A stretch of DNA of 64,000 nt, taken from the NCBI GenBank assembly GCA_963815115.1, contig CAWFFN010000005.1, positions 1,632,001-1,696,000 of the forward strand, in the 5' to 3' direction. The translations under genes and the position numbers were made by a program. The notes beneath the pieces were generated by a model, which was given only the letters and a program-made list of their open reading frames with translations, ran no database searches and was not told the DNA's origin. This DNA comes from an uncultured delta proteobacterium (GTDB lineage: Bacteria; Desulfobacterota; Binatia; DP-6). Shown piece by piece: positions 22,612 to 59,959 of the stretch. The stretch's first letter is position 1. Every line of letters begins with the position of its first letter.

Positions 22612-24373
<1,762 letters not shown>

Positions 24374-28060: not shown

Positions 28061-29215
28061 ATGGGCCGACGGGTCCTGCTCGTGCAGCTGTCGCTGCAAC
28101 CGCCGGGAGGTGGCAACGGCGTCGCTGCGTGGTTTCTCCAGGCGCTCGCGCGCGAGCATCGGGTGACCGTCCTCTCGTGGTGGCCAGTCGACGTCGCGCC
28201 CATCGACCGGTTCTTCGGCACCAGCCTGCGCGAGGTCGGGTTCGACACCCTCGGCCCGCCGCCCGCCTGGGTGACGATGCTGGACCGCCTCCCGATTCCG
28301 GCGAGTCTCCTCAGAAACGCGCTCCTCATGCGGTTCACCCGGCGGGTGAGCTCGCGCTACGAGGTCGTGCTGGGCGTGCACAACGAGGCCGACTTCGGCC
28401 GGCGCGGCATCCAGTACGTGCACTACCCGACCTACCTGCGCCCACGCCCGCGCGTCGACATGCGCTGGTACCACCAGTCGCGGCGCCTGCTGGACGGCTA
28501 CTACCGGCTCGCGGATCGGGCGGCCGGCCTGTCGTTCGACCGGGTGCGCTCGAATCTCACGCTCGCCAACTCCGACTGGACCGCGCGGCACGTGGAGCGG
28601 CTGCTCGGCGTGCCGGCACGCACCGTCTACCCACCCGTGGCCGATCCCGACCCGCCACCGCCATGGGAAGAGCGCGCGCGCCGCTTCCTCCTCGTCGGTC
28701 GCATCTCTCCGGAGAAGGAGATCGAGCGCGCGATGCGGATCGTTGCCCGCGTGCGGCGCCAGGCTCCGGGCGTCGAGCTGACGATCGTGGGCACCTGCGA
28801 CGCCCGGGCGCGGCGCTATCATCGCAGGCTCACCCGCCTCGCCGCGTCGCTCGGTCCGTGGATCACGTTCCGCGAGAACCCGTCACGGGAAGCGCTGCGT
28901 GCGCTGATGGCCTCGTCGCGCTACGGCATCCACGGCATGCGAGAGGAGCACTTCGGCATGGCGCCGGCCGAGCTCGTGCGGGCGGGGGCGCTCGTCTGGC
29001 TCGGACGCGGCGGCGGCCAGGTCGAGATCGTCGGCGGCGAGGACGCGCTCCTGTACGACACCGAGGAGGAGGCGGCCGAGAAGATCACCACCGTGCTGGC
29101 GAACCCGGCGGAGGAGCGGCGGCTGCGCGAGCATCTCCGTGCGCGCGCGGAGCGGTTCGCCCCGGCCCGCTTCGTCGACGAGGTGCGCGAGATCGTGGCG
29201 GCCTTCGAGACCTGA
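28061..29215 (+). CDS. GT4 glycosyltransferase
   Basis: YVHYP, ANSDWT, VYPPV, GRISPEK and EEHFGMAPAE motifs. Confidence 0.85.
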   Translation: MGRRVLLVQLSLQPPGGGNGVAAWFLQALAREHRVTVLSWWPVDVAPIDRFFGTSLREVGFDTLGPPPAWVTMLDRLPIPASLLRNALLMRFTRRVSSRYEVVLGVHNEADFGRRGIQYVHYPTYLRPRPRVDMRWYHQSRRLLDGYYRLADRAAGLSFDRVRSNLTLANSDWTARHVERLLGVPARTVYPPVADPDPPPPWEERARRFLLVGRISPEKEIERAMRIVARVRRQAPGVELTIVGTCDARARRYHRRLTRLAASLGPWITFRENPSREALRALMASSRYGIHGMREEHFGMAPAELVRAGALVWLGRGGGQVEIVGGEDALLYDTEEEAAEKITTVLANPAEERRLREHLRARAERFAPARFVDEVREIVAAFET

Positions 29216-29216
29216 C

Positions 29217-31793
29217 ATGGGCGGCGCACGCCTCCGGTGGCCCGCTGCGCTGCTCGCCGCGGCTGCGGTGGTCGCAGTGACGTGGATCCGCCAGCGGCCG
29301 CTGGGACTCCACGGCCTCGACGTCCATGCGGCGGCCGAGGTGCGGGACCGGCTGGCGGGAGCGAGGCATCTCGACGACGCGGCCGTCGATGCGTGGATCG
29401 CCGAGCATCGGGCGCGTTACGCCCGCAAGGTGGCGTCGACGCGGGACCGGCTGGCGCGACCCTATACGTACAGGGCCCAGGACGGGCGCGACCACGTCTA
29501 CCTCGGGGACTACGACAGCTATCTGTGGCTGCGGCGCGCGCGGCAGTACCTCCGGGCGGGAACCACCTGCGACGCCGTGGCGCACGGAGACTGCCGGGAC
29601 CTCCACACGCTGGCGCCCGTCGGCGGCTCGATGCGCTACGGGCGATCGATCCACATCGCGGCGATCGTTGCCGTGCAGCGGATCGCGGCGCGGCTCCGGC
29701 CGGGCTGGCCGCTGCCGTCGAGCGCCATGCTCGTCCCGATCATCGTGGGCGCGCTCGGCGTGCTGCCCGCATTCGCGCTCGGCCGCCGGCTCGCGGGCGA
29801 CGCGGGCGGTCTGTGCGCGGCGATCGTCGGCGGGACCAACGCCGTGTTCCTCGGACGCAGCATCGGCGGTGACGACGACGTGTGGAACGTCGTGCTGCCG
29901 CTCGCGGTCGTGTGGGCCGTCTCGGCCGCACTCGAAGCACGTCGCCCGATCGCATGCATGGGCTTCGCGGCGCTGGCGGCCGGGTTCCAGGCAGTGCACG
30001 CGCTCAGCTGGCGCGGGGCGCTGGTCACGTGGGGCGTGGTGGTCGGAGCGCTCGCCCTCGACGTCGCCGTGTCCGCGGCGCGCGCGCTCGGCCCCCGGCA
30101 CCGTGCAGCGGCGACCGGCGCGCTCGGTCGCACGAGTCTGACGCTCGTCGTGCTCTGCCTCGCCGGTCTCGGGCTCGCCGCCTTGCGAGGCGAGGCGCGC
30201 GCCTTCCTCCGCGTGCCACTGGACGCGCTGACCGCGCTCGTCGGTCCGGGGAACGTGCCGGCCCCGTCCGGCGAGCATTGGCCGGACACGCTGGCGACGG
30301 TCTCCGAGCTGTCGCACTCCGGCCTCGCGGGTATCGCGAGCGGCGTGGGCGGCGCGCTCTTCTGCTTCGTCGGCTGGCTCGGCCTGCTCCTGCTGGTGCT
30401 CCCGCGCCGGAACTGGGGACCGGCCCACTTCGCCGTGCTCATCGCGGGAACGCTCCTCTATCGCGGGCTGCTGGCAGCGCCCGAGATGAGCCGGGCGATC
30501 CTGCTGGGGCTCGTCGCGCTGCCGCTGGTCGCCGCGCTGGTCGTGTCCATCGGTGAGGATGACGACGACCAGGAGCGCGCTACCCGGCTGCTCGTCGTGG
30601 TGTGGTTTCTCGCCACGTTCCTGCTCGCGTGGGAATGGGTGCGCTTCACGATCCTGCTCGTGGCGCCGTTCGCGCTCGCGTTCGGCGTCGCGCTCGGCCG
30701 CCTGACGTCGTGGTTCGAGGAGGCGGCTGGTCCGTGGCGTCCGGCCGCGCGAGTGGCCGGCTGGCTCGTGGTCGCGGCCGTTCTCCTGCAGCCGCTCCGG
30801 AACGGACTCGACGCTGCGGACGCTTATCTGCCGCGCATGCGGGACGCCTGGTGGGACGGCCTGACCCGGCTCCGCCGCGAGGCGTCCGAGGACGCGGTCG
30901 TCGTCGCGTGGTGGGACTACGGCTACTTCGTGGAGTACGTCGCCGAGCGGGCGAGCGCGGCCGACGGGAGCACGCTCCTCACGCACGCGCCGCACTGGAT
31001 CGCCCGCGCGCTCCTCGCCCAGAGCGAGCGCGAGAGCGCGGGTCTGCTCCGCATGATCGCCTGCGGCTCGGACGCGTCGCCGCACCCGGAGGGCGCGCGG
31101 GGCGCATGGGGAAAGCTGGTCGCCCACGGCATCGACGGCGGGACCGCACACGATCTGGTCATCGCCGTGGCCAGCCTCGATCGAGCGGCCGCAGCCGGGC
31201 GCCTCGGGGCGGCGGGCCTCGATGCGGCCGCGGTCGAGGACGTTCTCGCCTCGACGCACTGCACGCCTCCGCCGACCTACGTTGTGCTGAGCAGTGCGCA
31301 GGCCGCAGCGACGACGTGGACCGTGCTCGGCTCCTGGAGTGACGAGCCCGAGGCGCTGGAGCTGTCGGGCGATGCCACGCCCTGCCGTCCCGACGGCCAT
31401 GGCACCCGCACGTGTGCCGTGCGAGCGGCGCTCGCGGATTCGCTGATCGAGCGCTTCGTCTATGCGGAGGCCGACCCGGCGGCGGGGCGGTTCGTGGTCC
31501 AGTCCTTCGACGGCGGGCCAGCGCGCGAGATGGCGCCGGCGGTCGTGATGCTCGCGGCCGGCGGTCAGGTGCGATCGCTCGAGCCGTCAGCCGCCGATCG
31601 CAGCCCGGTGGGAGTGCTCCTCAACGTCGAGCATGCCCGCGCCGTGGTGGGGACGCCGGCGTTGCTGCGCTCCACGTTCGCTCGCCTGATGTTTCTCGGC
31701 GACGGCGCGGGGAGCCCGTTCGAGCAGGTCGACGAGCGGACGGCGGCCGGCGAGCGGGTCGTGACCTGGCGAGTCCGCTACTTTCCCGATTGA
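29217..31793 (+). CDS. STT3-family oligosaccharyltransferase (PglB/AglB)
   Basis: DYDSY, RSIGGDDD (DxD), TVSE (TIXE/SVSE-like) and WWDYGY motifs. Multi-TM N-terminus with a soluble C-terminal domain. Confidence 0.9.
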   Translation: MGGARLRWPAALLAAAAVVAVTWIRQRPLGLHGLDVHAAAEVRDRLAGARHLDDAAVDAWIAEHRARYARKVASTRDRLARPYTYRAQDGRDHVYLGDYDSYLWLRRARQYLRAGTTCDAVAHGDCRDLHTLAPVGGSMRYGRSIHIAAIVAVQRIAARLRPGWPLPSSAMLVPIIVGALGVLPAFALGRRLAGDAGGLCAAIVGGTNAVFLGRSIGGDDDVWNVVLPLAVVWAVSAALEARRPIACMGFAALAAGFQAVHALSWRGALVTWGVVVGALALDVAVSAARALGPRHRAAATGALGRTSLTLVVLCLAGLGLAALRGEARAFLRVPLDALTALVGPGNVPAPSGEHWPDTLATVSELSHSGLAGIASGVGGALFCFVGWLGLLLLVLPRRNWGPAHFAVLIAGTLLYRGLLAAPEMSRAILLGLVALPLVAALVVSIGEDDDDQERATRLLVVVWFLATFLLAWEWVRFTILLVAPFALAFGVALGRLTSWFEEAAGPWRPAARVAGWLVVAAVLLQPLRNGLDAADAYLPRMRDAWWDGLTRLRREASEDAVVVAWWDYGYFVEYVAERASAADGSTLLTHAPHWIARALLAQSERESAGLLRMIACGSDASPHPEGARGAWGKLVAHGIDGGTAHDLVIAVASLDRAAAAGRLGAAGLDAAAVEDVLASTHCTPPPTYVVLSSAQAAATTWTVLGSWSDEPEALELSGDATPCRPDGHGTRTCAVRAALADSLIERFVYAEADPAAGRFVVQSFDGGPAREMAPAVVMLAAGGQVRSLEPSAADRSPVGVLLNVEHARAVVGTPALLRSTFARLMFLGDGAGSPFEQVDERTAAGERVVTWRVRYFPD

Positions 31794-32212
31794 CGGACCG
31801 CGAGCGTGCAGAAGGTCTTCGACTTCTTGAGCGCCAGCGAGCCGTTGAACGGGAAATCGAGGGCGCCGACTCCCACCGTCGCTCCCGGGAACTTCGGCGT
31901 GCCCGAGTCGTCCTTGATGCTGAAGCAGACCAGGCTCAGCGCCGTATCGTTGGAGCCTCCGTTGTTGATGGGGTCGCAGTAGAGGACGGGCTTGAGGGCC
32001 TGCCCGGTCGTGCCCTGGAGGGTGCCGTTGAAGATCATGTCGACCGGCACGAACTTCGGCGAGCCCTTGGGCGGCTTCCCGGGGTAGCAGCGCCATCCCT
32101 GCGGGGCGATCTGCGTGGACGCGGTGTCCGTCCAGAGCAGCGACAGAACCGTTGCCGCGACCACGACGGCGGCGCACACGGCCCACGCTGGCCGGCGGCG
32201 GGTTCCTTCCAT
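31778..32212 (-). CDS. Small secreted Cys-containing hypothetical protein
   Basis: GGAGGA SD, signal peptide, 4 Cys in the mature part. Confidence 0.6.
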   Translation of the reverse strand: MEGTRRRPAWAVCAAVVVAATVLSLLWTDTASTQIAPQGWRCYPGKPPKGSPKFVPVDMIFNGTLQGTTGQALKPVLYCDPINNGGSNDTALSLVCFSIKDDSGTPKFPGATVGVGALDFPFNGSLALKKSKTFCTLAVRQSGK

Positions 32213-32279: not shown

Positions 32280-34052
32280 TCATCCCTCGGCGGCGGCCAG
32301 GTGCCGGAAGGCAGCGTTGTCGCTCAGGAGGTCCTCGTAGCGGCCCTCGGCGGCGATGCGGCCATCGGCGAGCAGGACCAGGCGATCGCAGCAGCGGACG
32401 CTGGTCAGGCGGTGCGCGACGACCACCAGCGTGAGGACCCCGCGCAGCGGCTCGATGGCGCGCAGCAGCTCTGCCTCCGTGTGGTTGTCCAGCGCCGCGG
32501 TCGCCTCGTCGAACACCAGGACGTGGGGCCGGTGGTACAGCGCGCGCGCGATCCCGACTCGCTGGCGCTGCCCGCCCGAGAGACGGGCGCCTCGCTCGCC
32601 GACGGTGGTGGCGAGCCCCTGGGGCAGGCCCGCGACGAACTCGTCGAGCTGCGCCATGCGCACGACCTCACCCACCCGCTCCTCGTCGACGGCATCGTCC
32701 GCGACGCCGAGCGCGATGTTGCGGCGCAACGAGTCGTCCACGAGCGCGACGGTCTGCGGCACGTACCCGATCGCACGTCCCCAGGCGCGGCGGACCTCAC
32801 GGAGATCGCGCCCGTCGATCGTGATGCGGCCGGCCGTCGGGGAGAGCAGTCCGCAGAGCAGGTCCACGAGCGTGCTCTTGCCCGCGCCGGTCGCACCGAC
32901 GACGCCGACCGATTCGCCGCGCCGGATGGTGAGGTCGAGATCGGCCAGCGCGGGTCCCGGTGCGCCATCGTAGGCGAACGACGCGTTTGCCAGCACGATC
33001 GCGTTGCTGAAGGGAAGCGGTGCCCCGCCGGCGTCGCTGGCGAGCGCGGGAGCGGCGCCGGCCAGGTCCGCGTGCAGCGCGCGCACGGACGCCCCGCCGG
33101 CCCGGATCTCGTTCACCAGCATGAGGATGCGGTTGGCGGAGGGAATCACGCGAAAGCCCGCGTAGGCGTAGAGTCCGAGCAGCGGGACGACGTCCGGGCC
33201 GGGTCTGCCGAGGCGAACGAGTGCCACCACGACCGCCAGCGCCCCGAGCACGAAGACCGATTCGACCAGCACCCGGGGCAGGGCCGCGAGGGTGTCGGTC
33301 AGGTGCCGGACGCGCGCCAGTGCGTCCTGGCTGCGGGCGAACTGGCGGAAGAAGAAGCTCTCGCGGCCGAGGACCTTGATCTCCTTCACGGCGCCGAGGG
33401 TGGCCTGCACCCCTCCCAGCATGTCACGCTCCAGCGCGTACGTGCGCTCGCCCCAGCGGCGGGCGCGCGCCCGCGTCGCGTGCAGCAGGATCGCGCCCGT
33501 GGCGCCGAGCGCGAGCACGAGCCCGAGCGTCATGGCGGGTGACGTGAAACCGAGGACGGCCGTGATGGCGAGGACGACGAGCATCTCGGTGGCCACGGTG
33601 ACGGCGGGCGCGAGCACCCGGCGGCAGACGTCGTCGGCGCCGGTGGTGACGTTGTGGATGAGCTCGGCCGAGTTGCGGCGGAGGTGAAAAGGGTAGGGCG
33701 CTCCCAGATAGACGGCGAGCGCGCGGCGCGCGATCTCGGCGCGTCCCTCGGCCACGCGTGCGGTCTGCACCCACGCCTGCCAGACCTGGAAGGCGTTCTT
33801 CGCCAGGTAGAAGAACGCCAGCAGGACCGTGAAGATCACCACGGTTCCACGCCAGTCGCCTCCGGCGAGCGCCGCGACCACGGGCAGGCGGCCTGCCGCC
33901 GCCGGATCCCCCACGATGCGGATGAGCACGTAGAGGGCGGCCGCGCCGAGCGCCTCCGCTCCCGCGGCGGCGAGCGACAGCGGCACGAGCGCCGCCCACT
34001 GCCGTCGCATGGCGGGTGGCAGAAGCGCGAGGGCGTTCCGGATGGTGGTCAT
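32280..34052 (-). CDS. ABC transporter, PglK/WlaB-like lipid-linked oligosaccharide flippase
   Basis: PY.FHL.RNSAELI, GATGAGKST, LSGGQRQR and FDEATAALD motifs. Translationally coupled to the ALG1-like gene. Confidence 0.85.
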   Translation of the reverse strand: MTTIRNALALLPPAMRRQWAALVPLSLAAAGAEALGAAALYVLIRIVGDPAAAGRLPVVAALAGGDWRGTVVIFTVLLAFFYLAKNAFQVWQAWVQTARVAEGRAEIARRALAVYLGAPYPFHLRRNSAELIHNVTTGADDVCRRVLAPAVTVATEMLVVLAITAVLGFTSPAMTLGLVLALGATGAILLHATRARARRWGERTYALERDMLGGVQATLGAVKEIKVLGRESFFFRQFARSQDALARVRHLTDTLAALPRVLVESVFVLGALAVVVALVRLGRPGPDVVPLLGLYAYAGFRVIPSANRILMLVNEIRAGGASVRALHADLAGAAPALASDAGGAPLPFSNAIVLANASFAYDGAPGPALADLDLTIRRGESVGVVGATGAGKSTLVDLLCGLLSPTAGRITIDGRDLREVRRAWGRAIGYVPQTVALVDDSLRRNIALGVADDAVDEERVGEVVRMAQLDEFVAGLPQGLATTVGERGARLSGGQRQRVGIARALYHRPHVLVFDEATAALDNHTEAELLRAIEPLRGVLTLVVVAHRLTSVRCCDRLVLLADGRIAAEGRYEDLLSDNAAFRHLAAAEG

Positions 34053-35316
34053 CACGCCAGGTCCGGAACGAGCACCGGGCGGGCCGCTGCCGTCCAGGCG
34101 TCCGCCCAGCGCTGATCCGTCTCGCGTGCCACGCCTGCCCGGAGGCGGTCGAGCAGCGCGGCCTGATCGGGGAACCCATCGAGAACGCGGCGCAGGCACT
34201 CCACCAGCTCCTCGGCGCTGCGGAAGAGGAGGGCGTTGTCTCCCTCGCGTGCGAGCTCGCCCAGACACGGTCCGTAGTCGAACGCCACGACGGGCACCCC
34301 CGCGCCGAACAGGTCGGCCACCTTCATCGGGAGGTCGAGTCCCGACGCCGAGCGGTGCAGGCAGAGCCCGAGATCGGCCGCGCCGAGGAATCGGCGATAC
34401 TCCGCGGAGGGCAGCCACAGGGTGCGCAGGTGAACCCGCTCGAGCCGGAGCGCCGCGAAGCGGCGCTCGTAGTCCGCCCTGAGCGGTCCCTGACCCGTGA
34501 CCACGATCGCGAGCCGCGCCCGCGTCGTCCCGACGCGCCGGTCCCACTTGAGGGCGGCGTCCACGAGCAGCTCGAAGTCCTCGTCGGCCGTCCAGCTGGT
34601 CGGACTGACGACGAGTGCCGGGCGTCCCTCGTCACCGTCGCCGGCGAGTCCGGGGAGGTCGAGGCGTAACGCCAGCTCGTCGAGCACTGCTCGCCGGTCG
34701 TCGGGAAGGAGCGGCTCGAAGCCCGCGCCGGGCCGGTCACGAAAGACCGTCGCACGACCGACCTTCCAGCGGACGAGCTCGGCGGCGAGCGCGCGCGAGA
34801 CGCAGAGATGCGCGTCCGCGCATCGTCCGAGGCCCCGTTCGAGACCGCGCGACGAGACCGACCAGGGGGTGTCGCGGGCCCAGGCGCAACGCCAGCATCG
34901 CCCAGCCGAGGTTGTGCCAGTCGACGACCAGGCGGGCGCTCCGGATGCGGCAGACGGCGAGCGCCACCACGAGCGCCGGGATCGTGGGCGGGTTCTGCAC
35001 CAGGATCACGCTGCGGGGCTCGACGGTGCCGGAGAGCGTCGCGAGGAGCGCGGCGGCTGCGCGGACGGCGTTCCAGAGGGCGACGGCCAGGAAGAGCGGG
35101 CGGGGCAGCCCGTGGCGTCGGGCGCCAGCCGGCGCCGCGAGGATGTGCACCACGACGCGGGGGTCGTTTGCGATCTCGGACGGGATACTCGGTCTCCTCG
35201 TAGCCCACGAGGTGCACGTCCGCGCCGCTGTCGGCCAGCGCACGTGCGTGGTACAGCATCCGCGGGCTGCGCCCCAGATCCCCCAGCACCACCACGGTCA
35301 CGCGGAAGCGAGGCAT
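34052..35316 (-). CDS. ALG1-like beta-1,4-mannosyltransferase (GT33), interrupted by two +1 frameshifts (about 35190 and 34844)
   Basis: VVLGDLGRSPRMLYHA, LVQNPPTIP, VDWHNLG, LCVSRAL, SPTSWTADEDF, VTGQGP and GLCLHRSASGLDLPMKVADLFG match eukaryotic ALG1 hallmark motifs across three frames. Confidence 0.85.
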
Positions 35317-36460
35317 GGAGACGGCCGGTGTCATAGCCCACCCGCCGCGGACGCTCCACGGGCGCCGCATCGCCATCGCGGGGGGTGGAACCGCGGGCCA
35401 CGTGCAGCCGGCGCTCGCCGTCGCCGAGGCGTACCGCGCCGCGGTGCCCGACGTCGAGGTCCTCTTCCTGGGGACGCCGACCGGAGCCGAGAGCCGGCTG
35501 GTGCCGGCGCACGGCCATCGGCTCGCGACGGTGACGGCGGCGCCGTTCTTCGGCGTCGGACCGGTCGGCCGGCTGCGCAGCGTCACGGCGCTGGCTGCCG
35601 GCGCCGCGCAGGCGCGCCGCGTGCTGCGCGCCGAGGGGATCGAGCTCATCCTCGGCCTCGGCAACTTCGCAGCCGCCGGCGCAGTCCTGGGCGCCCGGAC
35701 GCTCGGACTCCCCACCGTGATCCACGAGGCCAACGCCGTGGCGGGGGTGGCGAACCGGCTGCTCGGCCGGCTGGTCGATCGCGTGCTGCTCGGCTTCGCC
35801 GACGCCGCGCCGGCCTTTCCACGCGGCGCGACACTGCTCACCGGCACGCCGGTCCGGGCCGCGCTCGGCGGGCTGGCGACCTCGCGCGAGACGCGTGCCC
35901 CGGGAGCGATTCGACTCCTCGTCCTCGGCGGATCGCAGGGCTCGCCGTTCCTGAACGCGCGCGTGCCGGAGGCGGCGGGGCGCGTGGCGGGTCGCGGGCT
36001 CGCGGTGGAGGTCTGGCACCAGACCGGCCGTGGCGACACCGATCCGGTGCGCGCCGACTATCAGCGCAACGGCGTGCCCGCCCGCGTCGTGTCATCCCTC
36101 GACGACATGACGGACGCCTACCGCTGGGCAGACATCGCGATCGCGTGTGCCGGTGCAGTCACGCTGGCCGAGCTGGCCGTCGTCGCGCTCCCGGCGCTCC
36201 TGGTGCCGCTCGCGACGGCGGCGCTCGACCACCAGCGCGCGAACGCGAGCGCCTTCGCCGCTGCCGCCGGCGTATGGTGGACGGGCGAGAACGCCTGGGA
36301 TGCGACCGTCGTCGAGGAGCGGCTCGCCGCGCTGGTCGCCTCGCCGGATGAACGGCGCACTGCCAGGATACGGATCGCCGCCGCGGCCAGGCCGGAGGCG
36401 GCTGCCGACGTGGTGGCGGCCTGCGAGGCTCTCCTCCGGTCGGCCGGTGCGCGCAGGTGA
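35315..36460 (+). CDS. MurG-like GT28 UDP-GlcNAc transferase (outside a dcw cluster)
   Basis: AGGGTAGHVQP, IHEANAVAG.ANR, TGTPVR, LGGSQG, AGAVTLAE and HQ..NA motifs. Confidence 0.88.
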   Translation: METAGVIAHPPRTLHGRRIAIAGGGTAGHVQPALAVAEAYRAAVPDVEVLFLGTPTGAESRLVPAHGHRLATVTAAPFFGVGPVGRLRSVTALAAGAAQARRVLRAEGIELILGLGNFAAAGAVLGARTLGLPTVIHEANAVAGVANRLLGRLVDRVLLGFADAAPAFPRGATLLTGTPVRAALGGLATSRETRAPGAIRLLVLGGSQGSPFLNARVPEAAGRVAGRGLAVEVWHQTGRGDTDPVRADYQRNGVPARVVSSLDDMTDAYRWADIAIACAGAVTLAELAVVALPALLVPLATAALDHQRANASAFAAAAGVWWTGENAWDATVVEERLAALVASPDERRTARIRIAAAARPEAAADVVAACEALLRSAGARR

Positions 36461-36467
36461 CGAGGGC

Positions 36468-37517
36468 TCACCGGGAGCCGCGCGCGCGCAGCCATCGCGC
36501 CGTGACGGCGATGGCGAGCACGGCGCCGCCGACGGCGGCGATCGTTGCGGGGCGTCCGGCGACGACGGCGACGACGGCGACGGCGCCGAACGTGGCGCAA
36601 ACCCCGTAGAGGAGCAGCACGGCGCCGCGGTGGCTCATCCCGTCGCCGAGCAGGCGGTGATGGATGTGTCCCTGGTCCGCCCGCGCGATGCCCCCGACAC
36701 CGGCGGCGAGCACGCGCCGCAGCACGGCCAGCGCCGTGTCTGCGACGGGGAGCCCGAGGGCCAGCACCGGTGCGAGCACGACGACGGCGGTCGCGCTCTT
36801 GGCCAGCGACTCCAGCGCGAGAATCGCCATCGTGTAGCCGATGAGCAGGCTTCCCGTGTCTCCCAGGAAGATCGAGGCGGGCGGAAAGTTGTAGGCGAGG
36901 AACCCGGCCAGTCCACCGCCGAGGGCAGCCCACATGCCGGCGGCGTCGTACCGCCCCTCGGCCAGACAGACCAGGCACAGCGCCGTCGCGGCGATCGCAC
37001 CGGTGCCGGCGGCGAGACCGTCGAGGCCGTCGATCAGGTTGATGGCGTTGGTGATGGCGACGATCCAGGCGACGGTGAGCACGCCACCGGCGCCGCCGAG
37101 GTCGAGCCAGTGTCCGGTGAAGGGATTGGTGAGACCCTCGAGGGTGTAGCCGCCGGCGACGGCGAGCGTGGCGGCGAGCACCTGGAGGGCGAGCTTGGGG
37201 GCGACCGGGAGCCCGGCCAGGTCGTCAGCCACGCCGATTGCGACGATCACCGTGAAGCCCGCGATCAGCAGCCCCGGGGTGCGCCCTGGCGCAGCCAGCG
37301 CGTGGAGTGCGCTGCCCCCCGCGAGCCCGTCCAGGACGAGCGCGCCAGCGACGGCGACGAGGACCGCCAGTCCGCCGAGCCGCGGAGTGGGGCGGACGTG
37401 CACGCGGCGCGGACCTGGATCGTCGACGGCCCCGATGCGCCTGGCGGCGGCGCGCACCACGGGAGTGACCAGCAGAGCGAGCGCTGCCGCGGTCGCGGCG
37501 AGGATCAGGTATTCCAC
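36468..37517 (-). CDS. wecA: Polyprenyl-phosphate GlcNAc-1-phosphate transferase (WecA/TagO; MraY/ALG7 superfamily)
   Basis: D.PG.RRVH..PTPRLGG, G..DD, NAINLIDGLDGL, YNFPPASIFLGDTGS and DQGHIHHRL motifs. Confidence 0.9.
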   Translation of the reverse strand: MEYLILAATAAALALLVTPVVRAAARRIGAVDDPGPRRVHVRPTPRLGGLAVLVAVAGALVLDGLAGGSALHALAAPGRTPGLLIAGFTVIVAIGVADDLAGLPVAPKLALQVLAATLAVAGGYTLEGLTNPFTGHWLDLGGAGGVLTVAWIVAITNAINLIDGLDGLAAGTGAIAATALCLVCLAEGRYDAAGMWAALGGGLAGFLAYNFPPASIFLGDTGSLLIGYTMAILALESLAKSATAVVVLAPVLALGLPVADTALAVLRRVLAAGVGGIARADQGHIHHRLLGDGMSHRGAVLLLYGVCATFGAVAVVAVVAGRPATIAAVGGAVLAIAVTARWLRARGSR

Positions 37518-37646: not shown

Positions 37647-38528
37647 GTGCCGCGCCTGCCGCGCTCCAGGATCGCGCTCCGCCACTACGCCCTCGTGAGC
37701 GCCCCTGCGTTCGTGGCATCGCGCGTGCTCGATCGGCTGGTGCGGCCGCGGGTCTATCTCGGCGACCATACCCTGATGACCCGGACGGTCTTCGGTCACG
37801 TCCTCTACCTGGACACACGCGACGACAGCCTGTTGCCGGCGCTCGCCCTGCGCGGGGTCTGGGAGCCGAACGTCACGCGTGTCTTCCTGCGCCTGCTGCG
37901 GCCCGGCATGCGAGTGGTCGAGATCGGAGCGAACGTGGGCTACTACACCGTTCTGGCGGGCTCGTGCGTCGGCCCGTCGGGCAGCGTGGTCGCCTTCGAG
38001 GCCAATCCGCGCGCCGCGGAGCGCCTGCGACGCGCCGTCATCGTGAACGGCTACCAGTGGTGGACGCGCGTGGTCGTGTCGGCCGTCGCGGACCGCCAGG
38101 GTCGGGCGACGCTCCACCTGCTCGAGCGCCAGCAGGGAAGCTCGAGTCTCTTCCCGCGAGGCGACGCGTACCTCGAGCACCACGCCGAACAGGCGAGCCC
38201 GCTCGAGGTGCCCGTGACCACGCTCGACGGGTTTCTCGGGCCAGACCCCGCGCCGATCGATCTGCTGAAGATCGACGCGGAGGGCACCGAGCCGTTGATC
38301 TTCGCGGGCATGAGCGAGCTGCTCGCGCGCAGCCCGCATCTGCGCGCGGTGATCGAATTCGCCCCGCCGCTCATGGCGAACGCCGGGCGCGACGCGGGAG
38401 CATTTCTCGACACGCTCGCGTCACTCGGCTTTCACATCGACGTGATCGACGCGCGCGGCGGCCTTTGCACCGCGACGACCGCGCAGCTCCTCGCCGCCGA
38501 ATCGAGCGAGCTGCTGCTCTCGCGCTGA
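37647..38528 (+). CDS. FkbM family methyltransferase
   Basis: WEP..T, EIGANVGYYT, AFEANP and LKIDAEG motifs. Start uncertain. Confidence 0.88.
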   Translation: MPRLPRSRIALRHYALVSAPAFVASRVLDRLVRPRVYLGDHTLMTRTVFGHVLYLDTRDDSLLPALALRGVWEPNVTRVFLRLLRPGMRVVEIGANVGYYTVLAGSCVGPSGSVVAFEANPRAAERLRRAVIVNGYQWWTRVVVSAVADRQGRATLHLLERQQGSSSLFPRGDAYLEHHAEQASPLEVPVTTLDGFLGPDPAPIDLLKIDAEGTEPLIFAGMSELLARSPHLRAVIEFAPPLMANAGRDAGAFLDTLASLGFHIDVIDARGGLCTATTAQLLAAESSELLLSR

Positions 38529-41482: not shown

Positions 41483-44400
41483 TCAGGGGAGGCCGGCGCC
41501 GTGCTTGCCCTTCGGCTGCAGGCTCAGCCGACCCGCCGCGCACTGGCTCCCGGTGTCGATCGTGATCTCCACCGGCGACAGCAGTGGACTCCCGGGCTTC
41601 ATCCGCCCGAGGATCACCGTCGCCTTCGCCGGTCCCGTCCTGGGCACCACCAGGCGAACGCATTTGATGGGCGGGCAGAGCGTCATCCGCTGGTCGAAGA
41701 ATCCGTACGTCTGGTGGAAGAGCTTCTGCCACTGCTGCGTTCCGATGGTGCAGCAGACCTGCTCGCCCGAATCGGCGCGGATCTGCACGCGCACGTCCTG
41801 GGCGCGCGGGTCGACCCCGGCGAACGCGCCGGGGGCCAGCGTGGCCGTGGCGCGCAGCGTGGACTTCCCCGGGCGGAAGCGTGCCTGCGTGAAGGTGAGG
41901 GACTGGGCCGTGCAGCACGCCGGGTCCTCGGCGTCGACGAGCCCGTTCTGGTCGTCGTCGATGCAGTTGCCGCAGTCCTCCGGCGTCAGGCCCGGGGTTG
42001 CGACGGTCGCGGTGTCGTCGGAGGGATTCGGATCGGGCTCCGTGGCCGTCACGGTGGCCGTGTTGCTGAACGCGTTGTCGTTCGCGCGCGTTCCGACGAT
42101 GGCCACGGTCGCGGTGGCACCCGACGCGAGGTCGCCGAGGACGCACGTGACGACCTGCACGGCGGTGGTGCAGGTGCCCTGGCTCGGCGTCAACGTACCC
42201 GGGGTCACGGCAGAGGGCAGGGGATCGACCACGGTGACGTTCGTCGCCTTCGCCGGACCCGCGTTGGTGACCGTGAGCGTATAGCTGAGCGCCTCGCCGT
42301 TCCTCGGCTGCGCCGGGCTGACGCTCTTCGTGAGGTGGAGGTCGGCCTGCGCCGGAACGGTCGTCTGTGCCGTGGCGCCGTTGTTCGTCGCGACCGGGTC
42401 GGGCTGATCGCTCCTGACCGTCGCGGTGTCGACCAGCGCGCCGGACGCACTCGGCAGGACGCGCACGACGATGGTGGCCGTCAGCGTACCGCCGCTCGCG
42501 AGGCTGGCGACCGTGCAAGTGATCGGGTTGCCGCCGGTGCAGGCTCCGGCGCTCGCGGTGGCGGACACGAGCTGGACGCCGGCCGGTAGCGTGTCGGTGA
42601 GGAGCACGTTGCTCGCCGAGGCCGGGCCGTGGTTCACGACCCGCAGGGTGTAGGTGACCTGGGTACCGGATGCTGCGCTCGTGGGCGTGCCGGTCTTGCT
42701 GACCTCGAGATCGGCGTCGGTCGGTGGTGGAGGCGACACGAGCCCGACCTCCGTGGTGACGCTGCCGGTGTCGTCGGACGCATCGGGATCTGGAGTCGAG
42801 CTTGCCACCGTGGCGCTGTTCACGACCTCGGTGGCCTCGGGCAGCACGGTGTAGGTCGCGACGATGGTGCGCGAGCCGCTCGGCGCGATCGTCCCCAGCG
42901 CGCACGGGAACGCGGTCATGCAATCGCCGCCGTTGGACACGAAGGCGAGACCCGGCGGCGTCGGGTCGGTCACCACCACATCGGTCGCGGTCGACGCCCC
43001 CGCGTTGCTCACCACGATGGTGTAGGACACGCGCTCTCCGGGGAACGCGCTCGCCGGGCCGGCCTTCGTCACGCCGAGGTTCGCCGAGGATGTGAGATCC
43101 GTCGAGTCGGTGGCGTCGTCGCTCGTCGGGTCGGGATCGACGGTCCCGGTGGGCGCCCGCACGCTCGCGGTGTTCGTCACCGCGCCCGTGGCATCGGGCG
43201 GCACCGTGGCGGTCGCGATGAACGTGGCGCCGCCGCCGGCCGGCAGATCGACGGTCGTCGCGATGGCCCCCGTACCGCCGGGGGTGCCGCAGCTTCCGCC
43301 AGGAGTCGCGCTGCACGACCAGCTCGCGCCCGTCAGCGGCCCCGGGAAGGTGTCGCCGACTGGCGCCCCGGCGACGTCGCTGGGTCCGGCGTTCTGGACG
43401 GTGATGGTGTAGGTCAGCGGGGCGCCGGGAAGAGCCAGCGTCTGGCCGTCGGTCTTGGTGATGGAGAGGTCGGCGACCAGCGCCGTCGTGCCCGGTACGC
43501 TGCTCGCGTCGTTCGCCGGGTTGGGGTCGATCTCGTTCCCGGCGGTGCGGCTGGCGGTGTTCGTGAAGGAGCCCAGCCTGGTGACCCGTGCCGTGATGGA
43601 GAGGATGGCCGAGCGGGTGGCCGGGAGGTTGCCGACCGTCCACGTGCCGGAGTCCTCGTCGTAGGTGCCCTGCGACGCCGGGGCCGACACGACGGCAAAC
43701 CCGGGCGGCAGCAGGTCGGTGACCACGACGCCGGTGGCTGGGCTCGGCCCGTGGTTGGTCGCGGTGACCGTGAAGCTGACCTGGCCTCCGACCGCCGGCG
43801 AGGCGGTGCTGATCGTCTTGCCGACGTCGATGTCGGCGGTGGCGGCGGCGTTGAGCGACAGGCTCGCCTGGTCGTTGAGCGGGTTGGGGTCGATCTCGGT
43901 CTGGCCGGTCTTCCGCGCCACGTTGACCAGCGTGCCCGTCGTGTTGACCGACGCGACGACGGTCAAGGTGGCCGACGTCGAGGCGGTGAGGTCCCCCACC
44001 GTCCAGATGCCGCTGGCCGCGTCGTAGGTGCCCTGCGACGGAGCGGCCGATGTCAGCGCGAGGCCTGCCGGCAGCGCGTCCTGCACCTCGACGCCGGTGG
44101 CGTCGCTCGGCCCGCGGTTGGTCGCGGTCACGGTGAAGGTGACGCTCTCGCCGACCGAGGGTGTCGTCTTGTCGGCCGTCTTCTGGACGGCCACGTCGGC
44201 CGCGGCGGCGACGTTGATGGTGGCGGCACCCGACTCGTTGCCCGGGTTGGGGTCGGGCTCGTTGCCGCCCGTGCGAATGGCGAGGTTGGTGATGTCGCCG
44301 GGCTGCGTCACCTGCGCCTGGATCGTCAGCTCGACCGACTGGCCGGCGGCGAGGGCGGAGATCACCCACTCGCCGCTCGAGTCCGTGTAGGCGCCCTGCG

Positions 44401-47400
44401 TGGGCGACGCCGACACGAAGGACAGGCCGGCCGGCAGGAGGTCCGTGACGACGACTCCCGTCGCAGCGTTGGGGCCGTTGTTGCGCGCCTGGATCGTGAA
44501 GCTGACGGAGTCGCCAACCAGGATTCCGGTCGCGGGAGCGACGGACTTGGTCACCTCCACGTCGGCATTGGCGTCGACCGGCGTCTGTACGCTGGCGGAG
44601 TCGTTCCCCGGGACGGGGTCGGGTGTCTGGCTCGACACGCTCGCCGTCTGCACGATCGGGTTCGGCGTCTGGTAGCCCGGCGGCACGAGCAGGGTGGTGG
44701 TGATGGTCCGAGACGCTCGCGGGGCGAGCGTGGCCAGCGTGCACGGGAACGGCGTCGTGCAGTCGCCGCTGTTGGAGACGAAGGTCAGACCGCTCGGTGT
44801 CGAGTCGTTCACCACGACGTTGGTCGCGGTGGACGGCCCCTCGTTCGTCACGACGATGGTGTAGACGGCGGCGTTGCCCGGAACCACGGTCGGCGGTCCG
44901 GACTTCGTCAGGGCCAGATCCGCCTGCGGCGTCAGCTCATCGGTGTCGGTGGCGACGCCGGAGCCAGGATTGGCGAAGCCCGCAGGAGGCATCGCTTCGG
45001 CGGTATTGGTCAGCGTCCCCGTGGCATCCGCCGGGACGGTGCCCGTCAGCACGAACGTCGCGGCAGTGTTCGCGGGCAAGTTGACGGTCGTGTCGATCGA
45101 GCCCGCCCCGGTCGGCGTCGTGCAGCTCCCGCCGCCCGTCGCGCTGCACGTCCACGTCGCGCCGCTCAGCACCGTCACCTGATCCTGCACGCTGACACCG
45201 CTGGCATCGCTCGGGCCGCTGTTGGTGACGGTGATGGTGTACGTGGTCGGATTGCCCGGTACCACGCTGGCCGTCCCGTCGTCCTTCGTCACCGTCAGCG
45301 TGGCCTGCCGGTCGCTCAGGCTCGCGCTCGCGCTACCGGCGTTGTTCGCCGGAACCGGATCGGGCGTGGCGCTCGACGCCGTGGCCGTGTTCTCGATCGG
45401 ATCGGGGCCGGCGTAGTTGCCCGGGATGTGGAAGAGCGAGGTGATGGTGGCGCTCGCCCCCGGCGCGAGGGTGCCGAGGGTGCAGGGGAACACGGTCGTG
45501 CAGGCGTCGCCGTTCGAGGTGAACGTCAGCCCCGTCGGGGTCGGGTCGTCGACCACGACGCCGACGGCCGTCGAGGGACCGATATTGGTGACGACGGTCG
45601 TGAAGGTGATGTCGTCGCCGGCCGTCACCGAGCCCGAGCTCGCCGTCTTGCTCACCTGCACGTCCGCGGAGGGGGTGATGGCCGTCGTGTCGGTCGCCGT
45701 GTCGTCTCCGGGTGTCGGATCGGTGGTGCCGGCGGGCGGCGTGACGCTGGCGCTGTTGGCGAGGGCTCCGATGGCGTCCGGTGTCACCGTGACCGTGGCG
45801 GTGAAGATCGCGGCCGCGCCCGCCGGCAGGTCGACCGTGGTCGCGATGGGACCGTCGCCGCTCGCCGTCCCGCAGGCGCCCCCGTCGGTGGCGCTGCACG
45901 TCCAGGTGACGCCCGTCAGCACCACCGGGAACGTGTCGCTCACCGATGCGCCGGTCACGGTGCTGGGTCCGGCGTTGGCGACCGTGATCGTGTAGATCTC
46001 CATCGCGCCGGCAACCACGGTGTCGAGTCCGTCCGTCTTCGTCACGGACAGATCGGCCACGCGACCCGCCGTCGCCGTGACGCTCCCCGAGTCGTTGCCG
46101 GGGTTCGGATCTTCCTCGCTGGCCGAGGTCTTGATGGCGGTGTTGGTGAACGGGCCGGGCTGCGCGACCAGCGCCGTGATCGAGAGCACGGCCGACTGGG
46201 ACGCCGCGATGCTCCCCGCGGTCCAGGCGCCGCTCGCCGGGTCGTAGGTGCCCTGCGAAGGCGTGGCCGACACGAACGTCAGTTCCGCAGGCAGCTGGTC
46301 CGTGATCAGCACGCCCGTGGCGGGGCTCGGGCCGAGGTTGGTCGCCGTCACGGTGAACGTCACCTGCTGGTCGACCGCGGGCGTCGGGTTGCTGATCGCC
46401 TTGGTGACCCGGATGTCGGCCGTGGTGCCGGCGTTGAGCGAGACGCTGGACTCGTCGTTGGCCGGATTGGGATCGGCCTCGGTCTGCGTCTTGTTCGCCG
46501 TGTTGACGATCATCCCGGGCGTGTTCACGGAGGCGAGCACGGTGAGGGTGGCCGAACCCGGGAACGGAATCGCGCCGACCGTCCACGCCCCGGTGGCCGC
46601 GTCATAGGTCCCCTGCGACGGCGTGGAGGCGACCAGCGCGAGACCCGCCGGCAGCGCGTCGGTGACCGTGATCCCGCTCGCGTTGCTCGGTCCGTTGTTG
46701 GTCGCGGTCACGACGAAGGTCACGATCTGACCGACCGATGGCGTCGGGTTGTCCACCGCCTTCTGGATGGCGACGTCGGCCGCGGCAGCGGCGTTCAGCG
46801 TGGCGACCGCGGAATCGTTGCTGGTGTCGGGATCGGGTTCGTTCGCCGACGTCTTGGTGGCGGTATTGGTGATCGTCCCCGCCTGGGTGAGCACCGCCGT
46901 CATGGTCAGCGTCGCGTTGGCGCCGTTCTGGAGGTCGCCCACCTGCCACTGTCCCGAGGACGGGACGTACGATCCCTGCTGCGGCGAGGCCGAGACGAAG
47001 GTCATGCCGGCGGGGAGCACGTCGGTGATGACGACCCCGCTCGCCTGGTTCGGGCCGTTGTTGAGGACGCTGACGAACAGCGTCACCGTGTCGCCGACGA
47101 GCGCCGAGGTCGGCGCGACGCTCTTCAGGACCGCGACGTCGGCGTTCAGGTCGACCGGGGTCTGCGCGCTCGTGCTCCGGTTGCCCGGGTTCGGGTCCGT
47201 CGTGGTGTCGAACACGCTGGCCGTGTTCACGATCGGATTGGGCGAGGTGTAGCCGAGCGGGACCTCGAAGGTGGCGGTGATGGTACGGGTCTCTCCGGGT
47301 AGCAGCGTCCCGAACTCGCACGGGAATGCCGTGTTGCAGTCACCGGAGGTCGACACGAAGTTCAGCCCGGCCGGCGTCGGGTCGTTCACGGAGGCATCGC

Positions 47401-54977: not shown

Positions 54978-56246
54978 TCAGCGGAACAGCCATCCGGAGA
55001 AGATCAGGAGCCCGAAGCAGAAGAGGTTGACGGTGAGGACGATGCCGGCGACGTGACCCAGGCGGCCCTCCGGGAGCACGCGGCGGCGCTTGTTCCAGCG
55101 CTCGACGACGTCGTAAGCCACCAGCATCGCCCCCTGGTAGAGGCCGTACACGACGTACTGCGGCTGCAGCCCGTGCCAGCAGCCCATCAGGCCCATCGTC
55201 AGCATGAGGCCGACGTGATGGGCGCGCTGGCGGTTGCCGCCGAACCAGCGATGACGGGCGGCGGTCAGCATGAACCGCATGTAGACGTGGTCGCGCAGCC
55301 ACCAGGAGAGCGTGATGTGCCAGCGGTCCCACATCTCGCGGAAGTTGCGGCTCAGGAACGGGGCGTTGAAGTTCTCCGGCACACGGACGCCGAAGAAATG
55401 GCCGACGCCGATGGCGAACGCGCTGTACCCGGCGAAGTCGAAGAAGAGGTAGAGGCTGAAGGCGTACATGTAGCTGATGCTCGCCGCCAGCCCGGAGTGA
55501 TGCGCGGCGGGCGCCAGCCAGTGCTGGTACACGAGCGCCGCGACGATGAACTTGTAGAGGAAGCCCTGCGCGATGCGCTGGATGCCCGCCTCGACGTTGC
55601 GCAGGGCGCCGAACCCCCGGGGCGGGAGCGCATCGAGCTCGCTCGTGAAGTGATGGAAGCGGTCGATCGGCCCGGCGCTGACGGTCGGGGCGAAGAGCAG
55701 GTAGCTCGCCACGTCCGTCGCCCTGGGCATTCCCGTGACGACGCCGTCGCGGAGCACGACGATGGCGTCCACCACCCGGAGCGCCATGTACGAGATGCCG
55801 AGGAAGCCGAAGGCGTCGAAGAATCCGGTCGTGACGGCCGGAACGCCGGGCACCGCGGCGCCCTGCTTGACCGCGCCGCTCGCCGGTGCCGCGAGCAGCA
55901 ACCCGTGCAGCACGGGGTAGACCTTCAGCGCGACGAGCGGAGCGAGCGCGAGCGCGACGGCGGCGTAGAACGGCGCACCGCCGGCGTGCCGTCGCCGGAT
56001 GGCGGCATACGCCAGCACCAGCGCCACGCTTCCCGCGGCGTAGGCGGTGAGGAAGCCGAGCTGTCCGAACCCCGTGACCGGCGATCCTGCGAGACCCAGC
56101 GGGTCGCCGTACTGGAAGAGCAGGATCGCGATGCTGGCGAGCAGGACGACCGGGCGCCGGAGCAGGCCGAGCAGCGCCAGGACCACCAGCGCAGCCAGCG
56201 GGTAGAGGAGGAACAGGAAGTAGTGGAGATCGACGTACGGCGTCAC
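54978..56246 (-). CDS. dltB: D-alanyl transfer MBOAT protein DltB
   Basis: FLGISY, FAPTVSAGPIDRF, LFFDFAGYS.FA, PENF..PF, WHITLS.W.RD.VYMRF and MG.WHG motifs. Confidence 0.92.
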   Translation of the reverse strand: MTPYVDLHYFLFLLYPLAALVVLALLGLLRRPVVLLASIAILLFQYGDPLGLAGSPVTGFGQLGFLTAYAAGSVALVLAYAAIRRRHAGGAPFYAAVALALAPLVALKVYPVLHGLLLAAPASGAVKQGAAVPGVPAVTTGFFDAFGFLGISYMALRVVDAIVVLRDGVVTGMPRATDVASYLLFAPTVSAGPIDRFHHFTSELDALPPRGFGALRNVEAGIQRIAQGFLYKFIVAALVYQHWLAPAAHHSGLAASISYMYAFSLYLFFDFAGYSAFAIGVGHFFGVRVPENFNAPFLSRNFREMWDRWHITLSWWLRDHVYMRFMLTAARHRWFGGNRQRAHHVGLMLTMGLMGCWHGLQPQYVVYGLYQGAMLVAYDVVERWNKRRRVLPEGRLGHVAGIVLTVNLFCFGLLIFSGWLFR

Positions 56247-57814: not shown

Positions 57815-57836
57815 CTCTCGAGGCGCCGCCGCGGCG

Positions 57837-58007
57837 TCAGAACTCCTGGTAGATGAAGGGCGGTGGCTTGAACTGCCGCTCGCCGTGGATCGCCGCGACG
57901 CCGGCGATGATGCCGAGGTAGTAGAGCGTCAGCGCGATGAACCGCACCGCGTCCGACGCCCAGGCGCGTCGCACTCGCTGCTCGGCACGCTGGACGGCGC
58001 CCATCAT
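57837..58007 (-). CDS. dltX: DltX small membrane protein
   Basis: RFIALTLYY.. TM helix ending FIYQEF (DltX C-terminal motif). ATGA overlap with dltC. Confidence 0.8.
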   Translation of the reverse strand: MMGAVQRAEQRVRRAWASDAVRFIALTLYYLGIIAGVAAIHGERQFKPPPFIYQEF

Positions 58008-58300
58008 CCGGCGCTTCCTTCGGAGCTTCCTTGCGACATCCGTCGCTCGATGTCGGCGACCAGCGCGCGCGGCGTCTCCCACGCTCCGCGGTCGAACTCC
58101 GCCGGCGAGATGGTCAGCCCGAAATTCTCCTCGAATGCGACGATGAGGCTGACGGTGGCGAGGGAATCGAGCAGGCCCGACGTGTAGAGCGGCAGGTCAG
58201 GGTCGGCGAGCACCCCCTCGTCGCCGGTCACCTGCTGCAGGATGGCGAGGGCGCGCTCGCCCACGTCCGAGCGGTCCCGGGCAGTACCGTTCGCCGTCAT
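58004..58300 (-). CDS. dltC: D-alanyl carrier protein DltC
   Basis: GLLDSLATVSL phosphopantetheine site and ISPAEFDR..W.TP. Confidence 0.9.
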   Translation of the reverse strand: MTANGTARDRSDVGERALAILQQVTGDEGVLADPDLPLYTSGLLDSLATVSLIVAFEENFGLTISPAEFDRGAWETPRALVADIERRMSQGSSEGSAG

Positions 58301-59718: not shown

Positions 59719-59959
59719 CCCCCGCTGTGCCTCCCGCGCGACCACCCGGCCGACTGCACCTCGCCTCGACGGAGTCCGGGACATTCCCGGCTCATCGCCG
59801 GCACGTCTCCTGTCCGTCGAAAAGCAACGAGCATGCCAGGATACCGGCGGCGACCTCGCCCCTCATCCAGGGGTTTTCGGGGCAGAGCCGGGGCGTTGCG
59901 ACGCTCTCGGCGTGGCACTTTGCCCCGTGCCTAGGGGGCGGCTCGAGCAAGATATGCAC

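Follow-up and report, generated by a model that had tools for sequence, protein, structure and literature searches.

For the eukaryotic mannosyltransferase ALG1 (CAZy family GT33), the accessible part of Lombard 2016 reports no traceable prokaryotic relatives and considers a eukaryotic innovation possible (PMC4973528). The available text of the preprint by Xu et al. 2025 describes 204 bacterial ALG1 homologues (BLAST E-values from 6e-22 to 1e-104 against human ALG1); homologues from Gammaproteobacteria (GaALG1), Polyangia (PoALG1) and Binatia (BiALG1) complement the yeast alg1 deletion and produce Man1GlcNAc2-PP-phytanyl, i.e., work as beta-1,4-mannosyltransferases (10.1101/2025.10.15.682550). 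Bacterial ALG1 homologues are already reported and assayed, and the ALG1-like gene described here, located in a 64-kb stretch of contig CAWFFN010000005.1 (64,000 nucleotides, hereafter the window), is a further member of this recently described family. The source genome (G000), that of a soil bacterium, is Binatia by kinship. The addition of the window is the context: an ALG1-like gene apparently coupled to an exporter gene and accompanied by genes for a WecA-like phosphotransferase, a spare MurG, a GT4 glycosyltransferase and an STT3-family oligosaccharyltransferase (OST). As the joint best explanation, with a probability of about 0.75, we suggest that the locus is an ALG1/GT33 gene, likely intact, in an STT3-OST glycosylation cluster with the pathway proposed below.

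The homologues covered by the available text of Xu et al. 2025 share taxa with the relatives found here (Binatia, Polyangia, Methylomirabilota and 'Deltaproteobacteria') and show similar homology to eukaryotic ALG1. With eukaryotic ALG1 itself the window's protein shares the full-length GT-B architecture and the motif series quoted in an earlier note on this DNA. It differs in length (~420 aa vs 440-560 aa in eukaryotic clusters), in the operon-like cluster that surrounds its gene, in the lack of space for an N-terminal anchor and probably in the carrier, which would be a bacterial polyprenol, not dolichol. Like the Campylobacter pgl locus (PglC/A/J/H/I, PglK, PglB), the cluster brings together an initiating phosphoglycosyl transferase, cytoplasmic glycosyltransferases, an ATP-binding cassette (ABC) flippase (PglK is the best NCBIfam match here) and a single-subunit STT3-family OST. 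However, the initiating enzyme is of the WecA type, not of the PglC type, the OST reaches 22.7 bits on the PglB equivalog model (cut-off 1300), and the MurG-like and ALG1-like enzymes point to a core of two N-acetylglucosamines (GlcNAc) and mannose (Man), GlcNAc2-Man, not to the bacillosamine heptasaccharide. With the archaeal Agl pathways (Agl24, AglB) the cluster has in common a chitobiose core from a MurG/ALG13-14-like enzyme and transfer by an STT3 homologue. Unlike in archaea, which have no reliable ALG1 homologue according to the available preprint text (10.1101/2025.10.15.682550), an ALG1-type enzyme is present here.

The ALG1-like gene occupies positions 34052-35316 on the minus strand, where three frames join into a 420-aa GT-B glycosyltransferase (43 + 114 + 263 codons). 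Its parts are as follows.

35188-35316, minus strand: piece A (frame A), 43 codons from the ATG at 35316-35314, running from MPRFRVTVVVLGDLGRSPRMLYHA to GYEETE; the frame reads MPRFRVTVVVLGDLGRSPRMLYHARALADSGADVHLVGYEETE.
35187, minus strand: first break, a single extra base (coding-strand T, GAG-T-ATC) relative to all intact homologues.
34845-35186, minus strand: piece B (frame B), 114 codons, with IPSEIAND; it opens IPSEIANDPRVVVH and contains QNPPTIP, VVDWHNLGW and HPLVGLVAR.
34844, minus strand: second break, a single extra base (coding-strand T, CGG-T-CTC) relative to intact homologues.
34052-34843, minus strand: piece C (frame C), 263 codons (34843-34055) and the stop TGA at 34054-34052, the C-terminal GT-B half.

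Piece A carries the N-terminal G-rich motif VVVLGDLGRSPRMLYHA. The start MPRFRV/MPRIRV is common to the homologues P0004 (the orthologue from genome G006), P0005 and P0016 (an intact metagenome homologue). Piece C runs from LERGLGRCADAHLCVSRALA via TSWTADEDF and LHRSASGLDLPMKV and is recognized by the Pfam family Glyco_trans_1_4 (41.2 bits). As assembled, the gene is not an uninterrupted open reading frame (ORF), being cut by two +1 breaks. In the alignment with 20 intact homologues each junction amounts to one surplus base with zero residues lost; at both 35187 and 34844 the exact surplus base is ambiguous by 1-2 bases. Each surplus T is preceded by G, and both are in a non-homopolymer context.

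The stitched 420-aa protein is 82.6% identical to the intact P0016 over 419 columns. It retains all 74 columns that are invariant among the 20 homologues, and no in-frame stop occurs in pieces A, B and C. This identity and the complete set of invariant columns place the stitched reading far beyond chance. The hidden ORF split over three frames, which the earlier note had proposed, is thus confirmed, with frames A, B and C on the minus strand and every motif quoted there present in them. The pieces total the 420 residues that had been estimated, and the predicted break positions (~35190 and ~34844) are off by at most 3 bases and by 0 bases, respectively. Of the extent given there, 34052-35334, the end of the gene and its stop codon at 34052 hold; the other limit lies 18 bases past the start codon at 35316.

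For the family assignment, the C-terminal piece from the window itself (P0002, 265 aa) was searched against a database of 5.8 billion sequences. Targets were limited to lengths above 464 aa to keep the eukaryotic sequences from being crowded out. The 63 matches include eukaryotic proteins named ALG1 or GT33, with E-values from 4.7e-48 to 1e-30. Among them are a 'Chitobiosyldiphosphodolichol beta-mannosyltransferase' of Mycena (E 8.9e-41, 35% identity, 100% coverage) and 'glycosyltransferase family 33 protein' entries of Schizophyllum (E 1.6e-39 and weaker); 'UDP-glycosyltransferase TURAN' of Porphyridium, 'related to ALG1' of Ustilago and a Salix protein (E 4.7e-48) are matched as well. Identity to the named fungal, plant and algal ALG1/GT33 proteins is 32-37% in the rows that cover at least 90% of the 265 aa. 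With P0004 as the query, 2739 proteins are found at E<=1e-5 among 8000 candidates scored, and many of the bacterial family members carry the Joint Genome Institute (JGI) name 'beta-1,4-mannosyltransferase'. The N-terminal half is compared with eukaryotic ALG1 solely through the Atlas model of P0004, i.e., of the orthologue and not of the window's protein; this model matches eukaryotic ALG1 clusters with template-modelling (TM) scores of 0.90-0.95 over residues 1-412. Both domains of the GT-B fold are present in the same orthologue, Glyco_trans_4_4 at residues 19-191 and Glyco_trans_1_4 at residues 251-375.

Pfam finds generic GT-B (GT1/GT4) halves only in the ALG1-like protein, the searched libraries containing no GT33-specific model. 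No curated NCBIfam family claims it (the top match is WcaI with 46 bits vs the cut-off of 276), and no solved structure is matched at E<=0.01, either by phmmer with P0002 or by a profile of the 20 homologues. In a quick tree the bacterial and eukaryotic ALG1 rows split from three GT4 outgroup proteins with a support of 99 in the approximate likelihood-ratio test (SH-aLRT). Hence, the P0002 matches, the sub-cut-off score of WcaI and this split show similarity to eukaryotic ALG1 that is specific and stands above that to other GT-B families. The protein also retains the motif series QNPPTIP / DWHN / TSWTADEDF and so on, which we take to be a signature of eukaryotic ALG1. The ALG1/GT33 homology claimed in the earlier note is therefore supported by the matches of P0002, the TM scores of P0004 and the JGI names. 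Its expectation that automated annotation would miss or fragment the gene is to be tempered, as pipelines already name intact members of the family.

The protein starts with MPRFRVTVVVLGDLG, directly at the conserved core, as in bacterial homologues. The first conserved glycine motif follows only 8 residues after the start, which leaves no space for a membrane anchor at the N-terminus. Such a transmembrane anchor, presumably a trait of the eukaryotic ALG1 members, is thus missing here. Overall, the data support the reading of the locus as one gene, whose 420-aa product is a cytoplasmic GT-B glycosyltransferase belonging to ALG1 (CAZy GT33). By analogy with the assayed homologues, the predicted protein may act as a GDP-Man:GlcNAc2-PP-polyprenol beta-1,4-mannosyltransferase.

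In the quick tree the window's protein groups with P0016 and P0018 (support 100), deep among the bacterial rows. A branch with SH-aLRT 88 (not starred) has the bacterial rows together on one side, and the eukaryotic rows are unresolved. The tree, made by a quick search and not a careful one, comprises 20 of the 120 listed bacterial matches, all near relatives of P0004, 9 eukaryote-named matches (long fusion proteins were excluded, as were most of the Schizophyllum duplicates) and the three GT4 outgroups on long branches. The tree-based check for horizontal transfer, proposed earlier, is thereby answered in part: from this placement a recent transfer of the gene from a eukaryote to this genome is excluded, and the quick tree gives no deeper direction.

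A scan of one genome per species yields 207 confirmed ALG1-like loci, which are found in metagenome-assembled genomes labelled Binatia, Vicinamibacterales/Acidobacteriota, Rokubacteria/Methylomirabilota, Polyangia, Latescibacterota, Verrucomicrobiia and various 'proteobacteria'. Among G000 and 40 of its relatives a strong match (E<=3.4e-43) is present in 6 of the 41 genomes. Four related genomes have intact relatives, 43-64% identical across the C-terminal part, and a fifth has one at 42%; in G023, a genome of the same family as the window's, the ALG1-like protein is labelled Candidatus Binatia. The OST is present in five of the six genomes with a strong match vs none of the 35 others, where kin are not independent of each other.

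The nature of the two breaks is illuminated by the rest of the genome. With tblastn, 362 ORF segments of the same-genus genome G003, taken from a 400-kb part of a single contig, were searched against G000, and an orthologous locus with at least 80% coverage was required, for which 292 segments qualified. Seventeen of these 292 orthologues (~6%) are frameshifted in G000. They contain 22 junctions, which fall on 20 distinct sites (6.6 for every 100 kb of coding sequence tested); of these junctions, 18 shift the frame by +1. Sixteen junctions aligned as DNA comprise 13 single-base insertions in G000, 1 two-base insertion and 2 deletions; the other six, outside DNA alignments, are 2 duplicates from a second query and 4 cases of low identity or wide gaps. 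The junctions are mostly outside homopolymers and locally clustered, six of them within 5.4 kb on contig C9 (C9:640146-645510) and four within 0.9 kb on contig C8 (C8:565910-566776). In the reciprocal control, with queries from the G000 contigs C8 and C9 only, G003 shows 6 junctions in 6 of 282 queries (2.1%), about one third of the G000 rate.

A break of the same type lies ~11 kb from the ALG1-like gene, in an Amidohydro_3 (D-aminoacylase-like) gene at 22612-24373 on the plus strand. It is split by a +1 shift near 23295, with one frame matching positions 2-144 of the Pfam profile and the following frame positions 177-471. Three +1 breaks within the window are in line with the genome-wide rate, and the remaining genes of the cluster are all open. 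A ~90%-identical contig from a peat metagenome (558 nt, covering 34866-35424) has one base fewer exactly at 35187, which puts the nearest relative observed in frame at this position; this contig informs the first site only, and uncovered parts are not counted as evidence. The G000 assembly consists of 12 contigs, the largest of 1.9 Mb, and the genome is scored 100% complete. For a free-living organism with a genome scored complete, in which such a share of the conserved genes is broken alike, consensus errors of a long-contig assembly are a much better explanation than biology. We consider it most likely that both breaks are single-base insertion errors of the assembly and that the real gene is intact. 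The earlier note was right to name assembly error or very recent inactivation, and the broken orthologues and the excess of +1 junctions favour the former. Annotation of G000 calls for caution, as its apparent pseudogenes are suspect for the same reason.

The genes that surround the ALG1-like gene in the cluster are the following.

28061-29215, plus strand: GT4 glycosyltransferase (Glycos_transf_1, 58.2 bits), likely the next sugar transferase of the pathway.
29247-31793, plus strand: STT3/AglB/PglB-family OST, an open frame with WWDYG at 30909 and an alternative GTG start at 29139.
31778-32212, minus strand: predicted secreted protein of 144 aa, adjoining the OST gene, with 3 of its 5 Asn in N-X-S/T sequons.
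32280-34052, minus strand: ABC exporter of the PglK/MsbA kind (ABC_tran, 112.2 bits), likely a lipid-linked-oligosaccharide flippase.
35315-36460, plus strand: second MurG paralogue (GT28; PF03033 and PF04101), divergent from the ALG1-like gene.
36468-37517, minus strand: WecA/MraY-family (WecA-like) phosphotransferase (PF00953, 130.6 bits; wecA model 118.7 bits, below its cut-off).
37650-38528, plus strand: FkbM-type methyltransferase at the cluster edge (PF05050, 57.6 bits), a neighbour of the ALG1-like gene in only 1 of 80 related loci.

The OST has the features of the STT3 family, with 60.6 bits for PF02516 (cut-off 24.5), 32.8 bits for STT3-PglB_core PF21436 (cut-off 23) and the WWDYG motif. 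Its best NCBIfam match is an archaeal STT3 subfamily (43.8 bits, below the cut-off), and the distance from the end of its gene to the ALG1-like stop codon is 2.3 kb. The ATG of the exporter gene overlaps that stop codon (ATGA), and from this overlap the two genes are predicted to be translationally coupled. The best NCBIfam matches of the exporter, PglK (263.5 bits, cut-off 1000) and MsbA (253.3 bits), are both below their cut-offs. The MurG paralogue scores 242.8 bits vs the MurG cut-off of 250.25, and a canonical murG located on contig C9 reaches 295.9 bits; the paralogue is a candidate for the maker of the GlcNAc-GlcNAc core, in the role of ALG13/14. The 144-aa secreted protein has no family match in Pfam and NCBIfam, and the 80 related loci contain no homologue of it. 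Speculatively, it may be an acceptor of the glycan, or its position may be a coincidence.

The ALG1-like gene and the divergent MurG-like gene have overlapping start codons (CATG, 35314-35317) with zero intergenic space, so the promoters would each lie inside the opposite gene, or the MurG-like gene starts elsewhere. We do not call the GT4 of the cluster ALG2 or ALG11, because its orthologue shows generic GT4 Atlas clusters only.

The gene context was surveyed in 80 related loci with flanks of up to 10 kb, only 45 of the loci being 15 kb or longer. In these loci the ALG1-like gene is flanked by MurG-like (31), ABC (28), GT4 (17), OST (16) and WecA-like (15) genes. In 16 of the 80 loci the homologue has OST, MurG-like and ABC genes at its side, in part joined by WecA-like and GT4 genes. 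The order OST-MurG-ALG1-ABC is seen again in loci with the labels Binatia, 'Deltaproteobacteria', 'proteobacteria' and Verrucomicrobiia. In the Rokubacteria/Methylomirabilota loci, glycosyltransferase, ABC and WecA genes are present and no OST lies within the flanks covered; of the Vicinamibacterales loci, most contain none of the glycosyltransferase, ABC, WecA and OST genes. Parts of the cluster also occur as natural fusions, of a PF00953 phosphotransferase with an ALG1-like domain (P0127, P0130) and of an ALG1-like domain with the AglB core (P0138, on a 3.2-kb contig and to be treated with care).

Two further observations concern the neighbours of ALG1-like genes in related genomes. Next to the ALG1-like gene of G027 (42% identity), an ORF at 1-1440 of locus L006 (G027:C44, minus strand), judged by eye from its translation, resembles a fusion of a PglC/WbaP-type sugar transferase with a MurG-like protein. 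Directly downstream of the ALG1-like gene of G036, a 412-aa GT4 is encoded at 299-1537 of locus L004 (G036:C71, minus strand). Its N-terminus may resemble that of ALG2; a search of G000 with this neighbour as the query revealed no ALG2-type gene, the best match (E 3e-15) being confined to the C-terminal third.

From these components we suggest the following pathway. The WecA-like enzyme would place GlcNAc-1-P onto polyprenyl phosphate with the formation of GlcNAc-PP-polyprenol, and the MurG paralogue would add the second GlcNAc, as ALG13/14 do. The ALG1-like enzyme would then attach mannose in beta-1,4 linkage from GDP-mannose, and the GT4 might extend the glycan. The PglK-like ABC exporter would flip the lipid-linked glycan across the membrane, and the STT3-family OST would move it to Asn of the protein. 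The only experimental backing for such a scheme concerns the ALG1 step and would carry over from homologues. A native bacterial N-glycosylation system, in which a Man-beta1,4-GlcNAc-beta1,4-GlcNAc core is built on polyprenyl diphosphate and transferred by the OST to Asn, is thus a tentative reading of the cluster, to which we give slightly less than an even chance.

Several results weigh against the proposed explanation as a whole. The activity of the window's protein, the order of the steps and the glycan are predictions from families; family membership, gene content and conservation are observed here, and the enzymatic activity is taken from the literature on another Binatia homologue. Two of the five homologues assayed by Xu et al. 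2025, those of Deltaproteobacteria and Methylomirabilota, are inactive in both assays in the available text (10.1101/2025.10.15.682550). Neither the ALG1-like gene nor the OST was found in the four same-genus genomes searched, so the cluster is accessory and could be decaying. The frameshifts in G003 (2.1%) mean either a background of the method or that both assemblies are error-prone. Our codon-score frameshift scan gives 84 candidates per Mb in G000; the values for the two control genomes G006 and G037, each sampled over 200 kb, are 45 and 65 per Mb. The scan was dropped, since it did not separate G000 from these controls, and in the window it produces two false positives, at the boundaries DltD/DltC and DltC/next gene. 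The best of the public sequencing runs shares 0.10 of the sampled words with the window, near-identical metagenome contigs from four public runs (33608-33917, 33829-34075 and 34175-34422) span neither break, and the second break at 34844 is covered by no long metagenome contig. A genuine, very recent pseudogene with two real single-base insertions, perhaps at the onset of decay of a dispensable cluster, would agree with this absence from the congeners, with the lack of reads placed on the second site and with the position of both breaks outside homopolymers. It is nonetheless unlikely, as all 74 invariant columns are kept with no in-frame stop in any piece, the neighbouring genes of the cluster are all open, and similar +1 insertions in 17 of the 292 orthologues and in the gene 11 kb away would not be expected in a free-living organism with a genome scored 100% complete.

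Two programmed +1 ribosomal frameshifts, or separate polypeptides, would account for the shared direction of the shifts and for the G-T step that precedes both of them. However, all 20 aligned homologues, one of them 82.6% identical, are single-frame at both sites, which leads us to reject programmed frameshifting; moreover, the two sites have no known slippery motif in common, the same shifts are scattered across unrelated genes, and pieces B and C have no conserved start, so we regard its probability as negligible. The protein could also be an ordinary bacterial GT4 glycosyltransferase of polysaccharide synthesis that resembles ALG1 through the GT-B fold only, consistent with the generic GT1/GT4 domains seen with the Pfam models at hand, none of them specific to GT33. 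This is very improbable in view of the matches of P0002 to eukaryotic proteins named ALG1/GT33 (E down to 1e-48), the branch with SH-aLRT 99 between the ALG1 family and the three GT4 outgroups, and the beta-1,4-mannosyltransferase activity assayed in homologues of the same taxa, as given in the available text of the preprint (10.1101/2025.10.15.682550). We therefore retain the explanation of an ALG1/GT33 gene, likely intact, within an STT3-OST glycosylation cluster.

If the reading as a native N-glycosylation system is true, Binatia and allied uncultured soil lineages would have, in one operon-like unit, the complete cytoplasmic logic by which early eukaryotic N-glycans are assembled. This would give bacterial ALG1 homologues a physiological role and make the cluster a candidate donor pathway for eukaryogenesis. 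The recurrent neighbours in 16 of the 80 loci and the fused genes tie the parts together, so the native role of bacterial ALG1 becomes directly testable. The gene is not a discovery in itself; it is the conserved link between ALG1 and OST that deserves attention. No description of a bacterial ALG1-OST cluster was found in the literature within reach, i.e., outside most subscription journals and the supplementary tables of preprints. In the searched text of Xu et al. 2025 the words operon, STT3 and PglB occur 0 times each, and the 4 uses of 'cluster' are phylogenetic; the genomic context given here thus adds to that text.

Outside the cluster, at a distance of 4 kb, the window encodes at 41486-50146 on the minus strand a putative surface-type protein of 2887 aa, which is rich in Asn (149 N) and has 22 sequons. 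Farther on, at 54984-59784 on the minus strand, there is a dlt-like set that consists of an adenylating enzyme, a PP-binding carrier protein and DltD (PF04914, 146.8 bits). Such a set is unusual outside Gram-positive bacteria.

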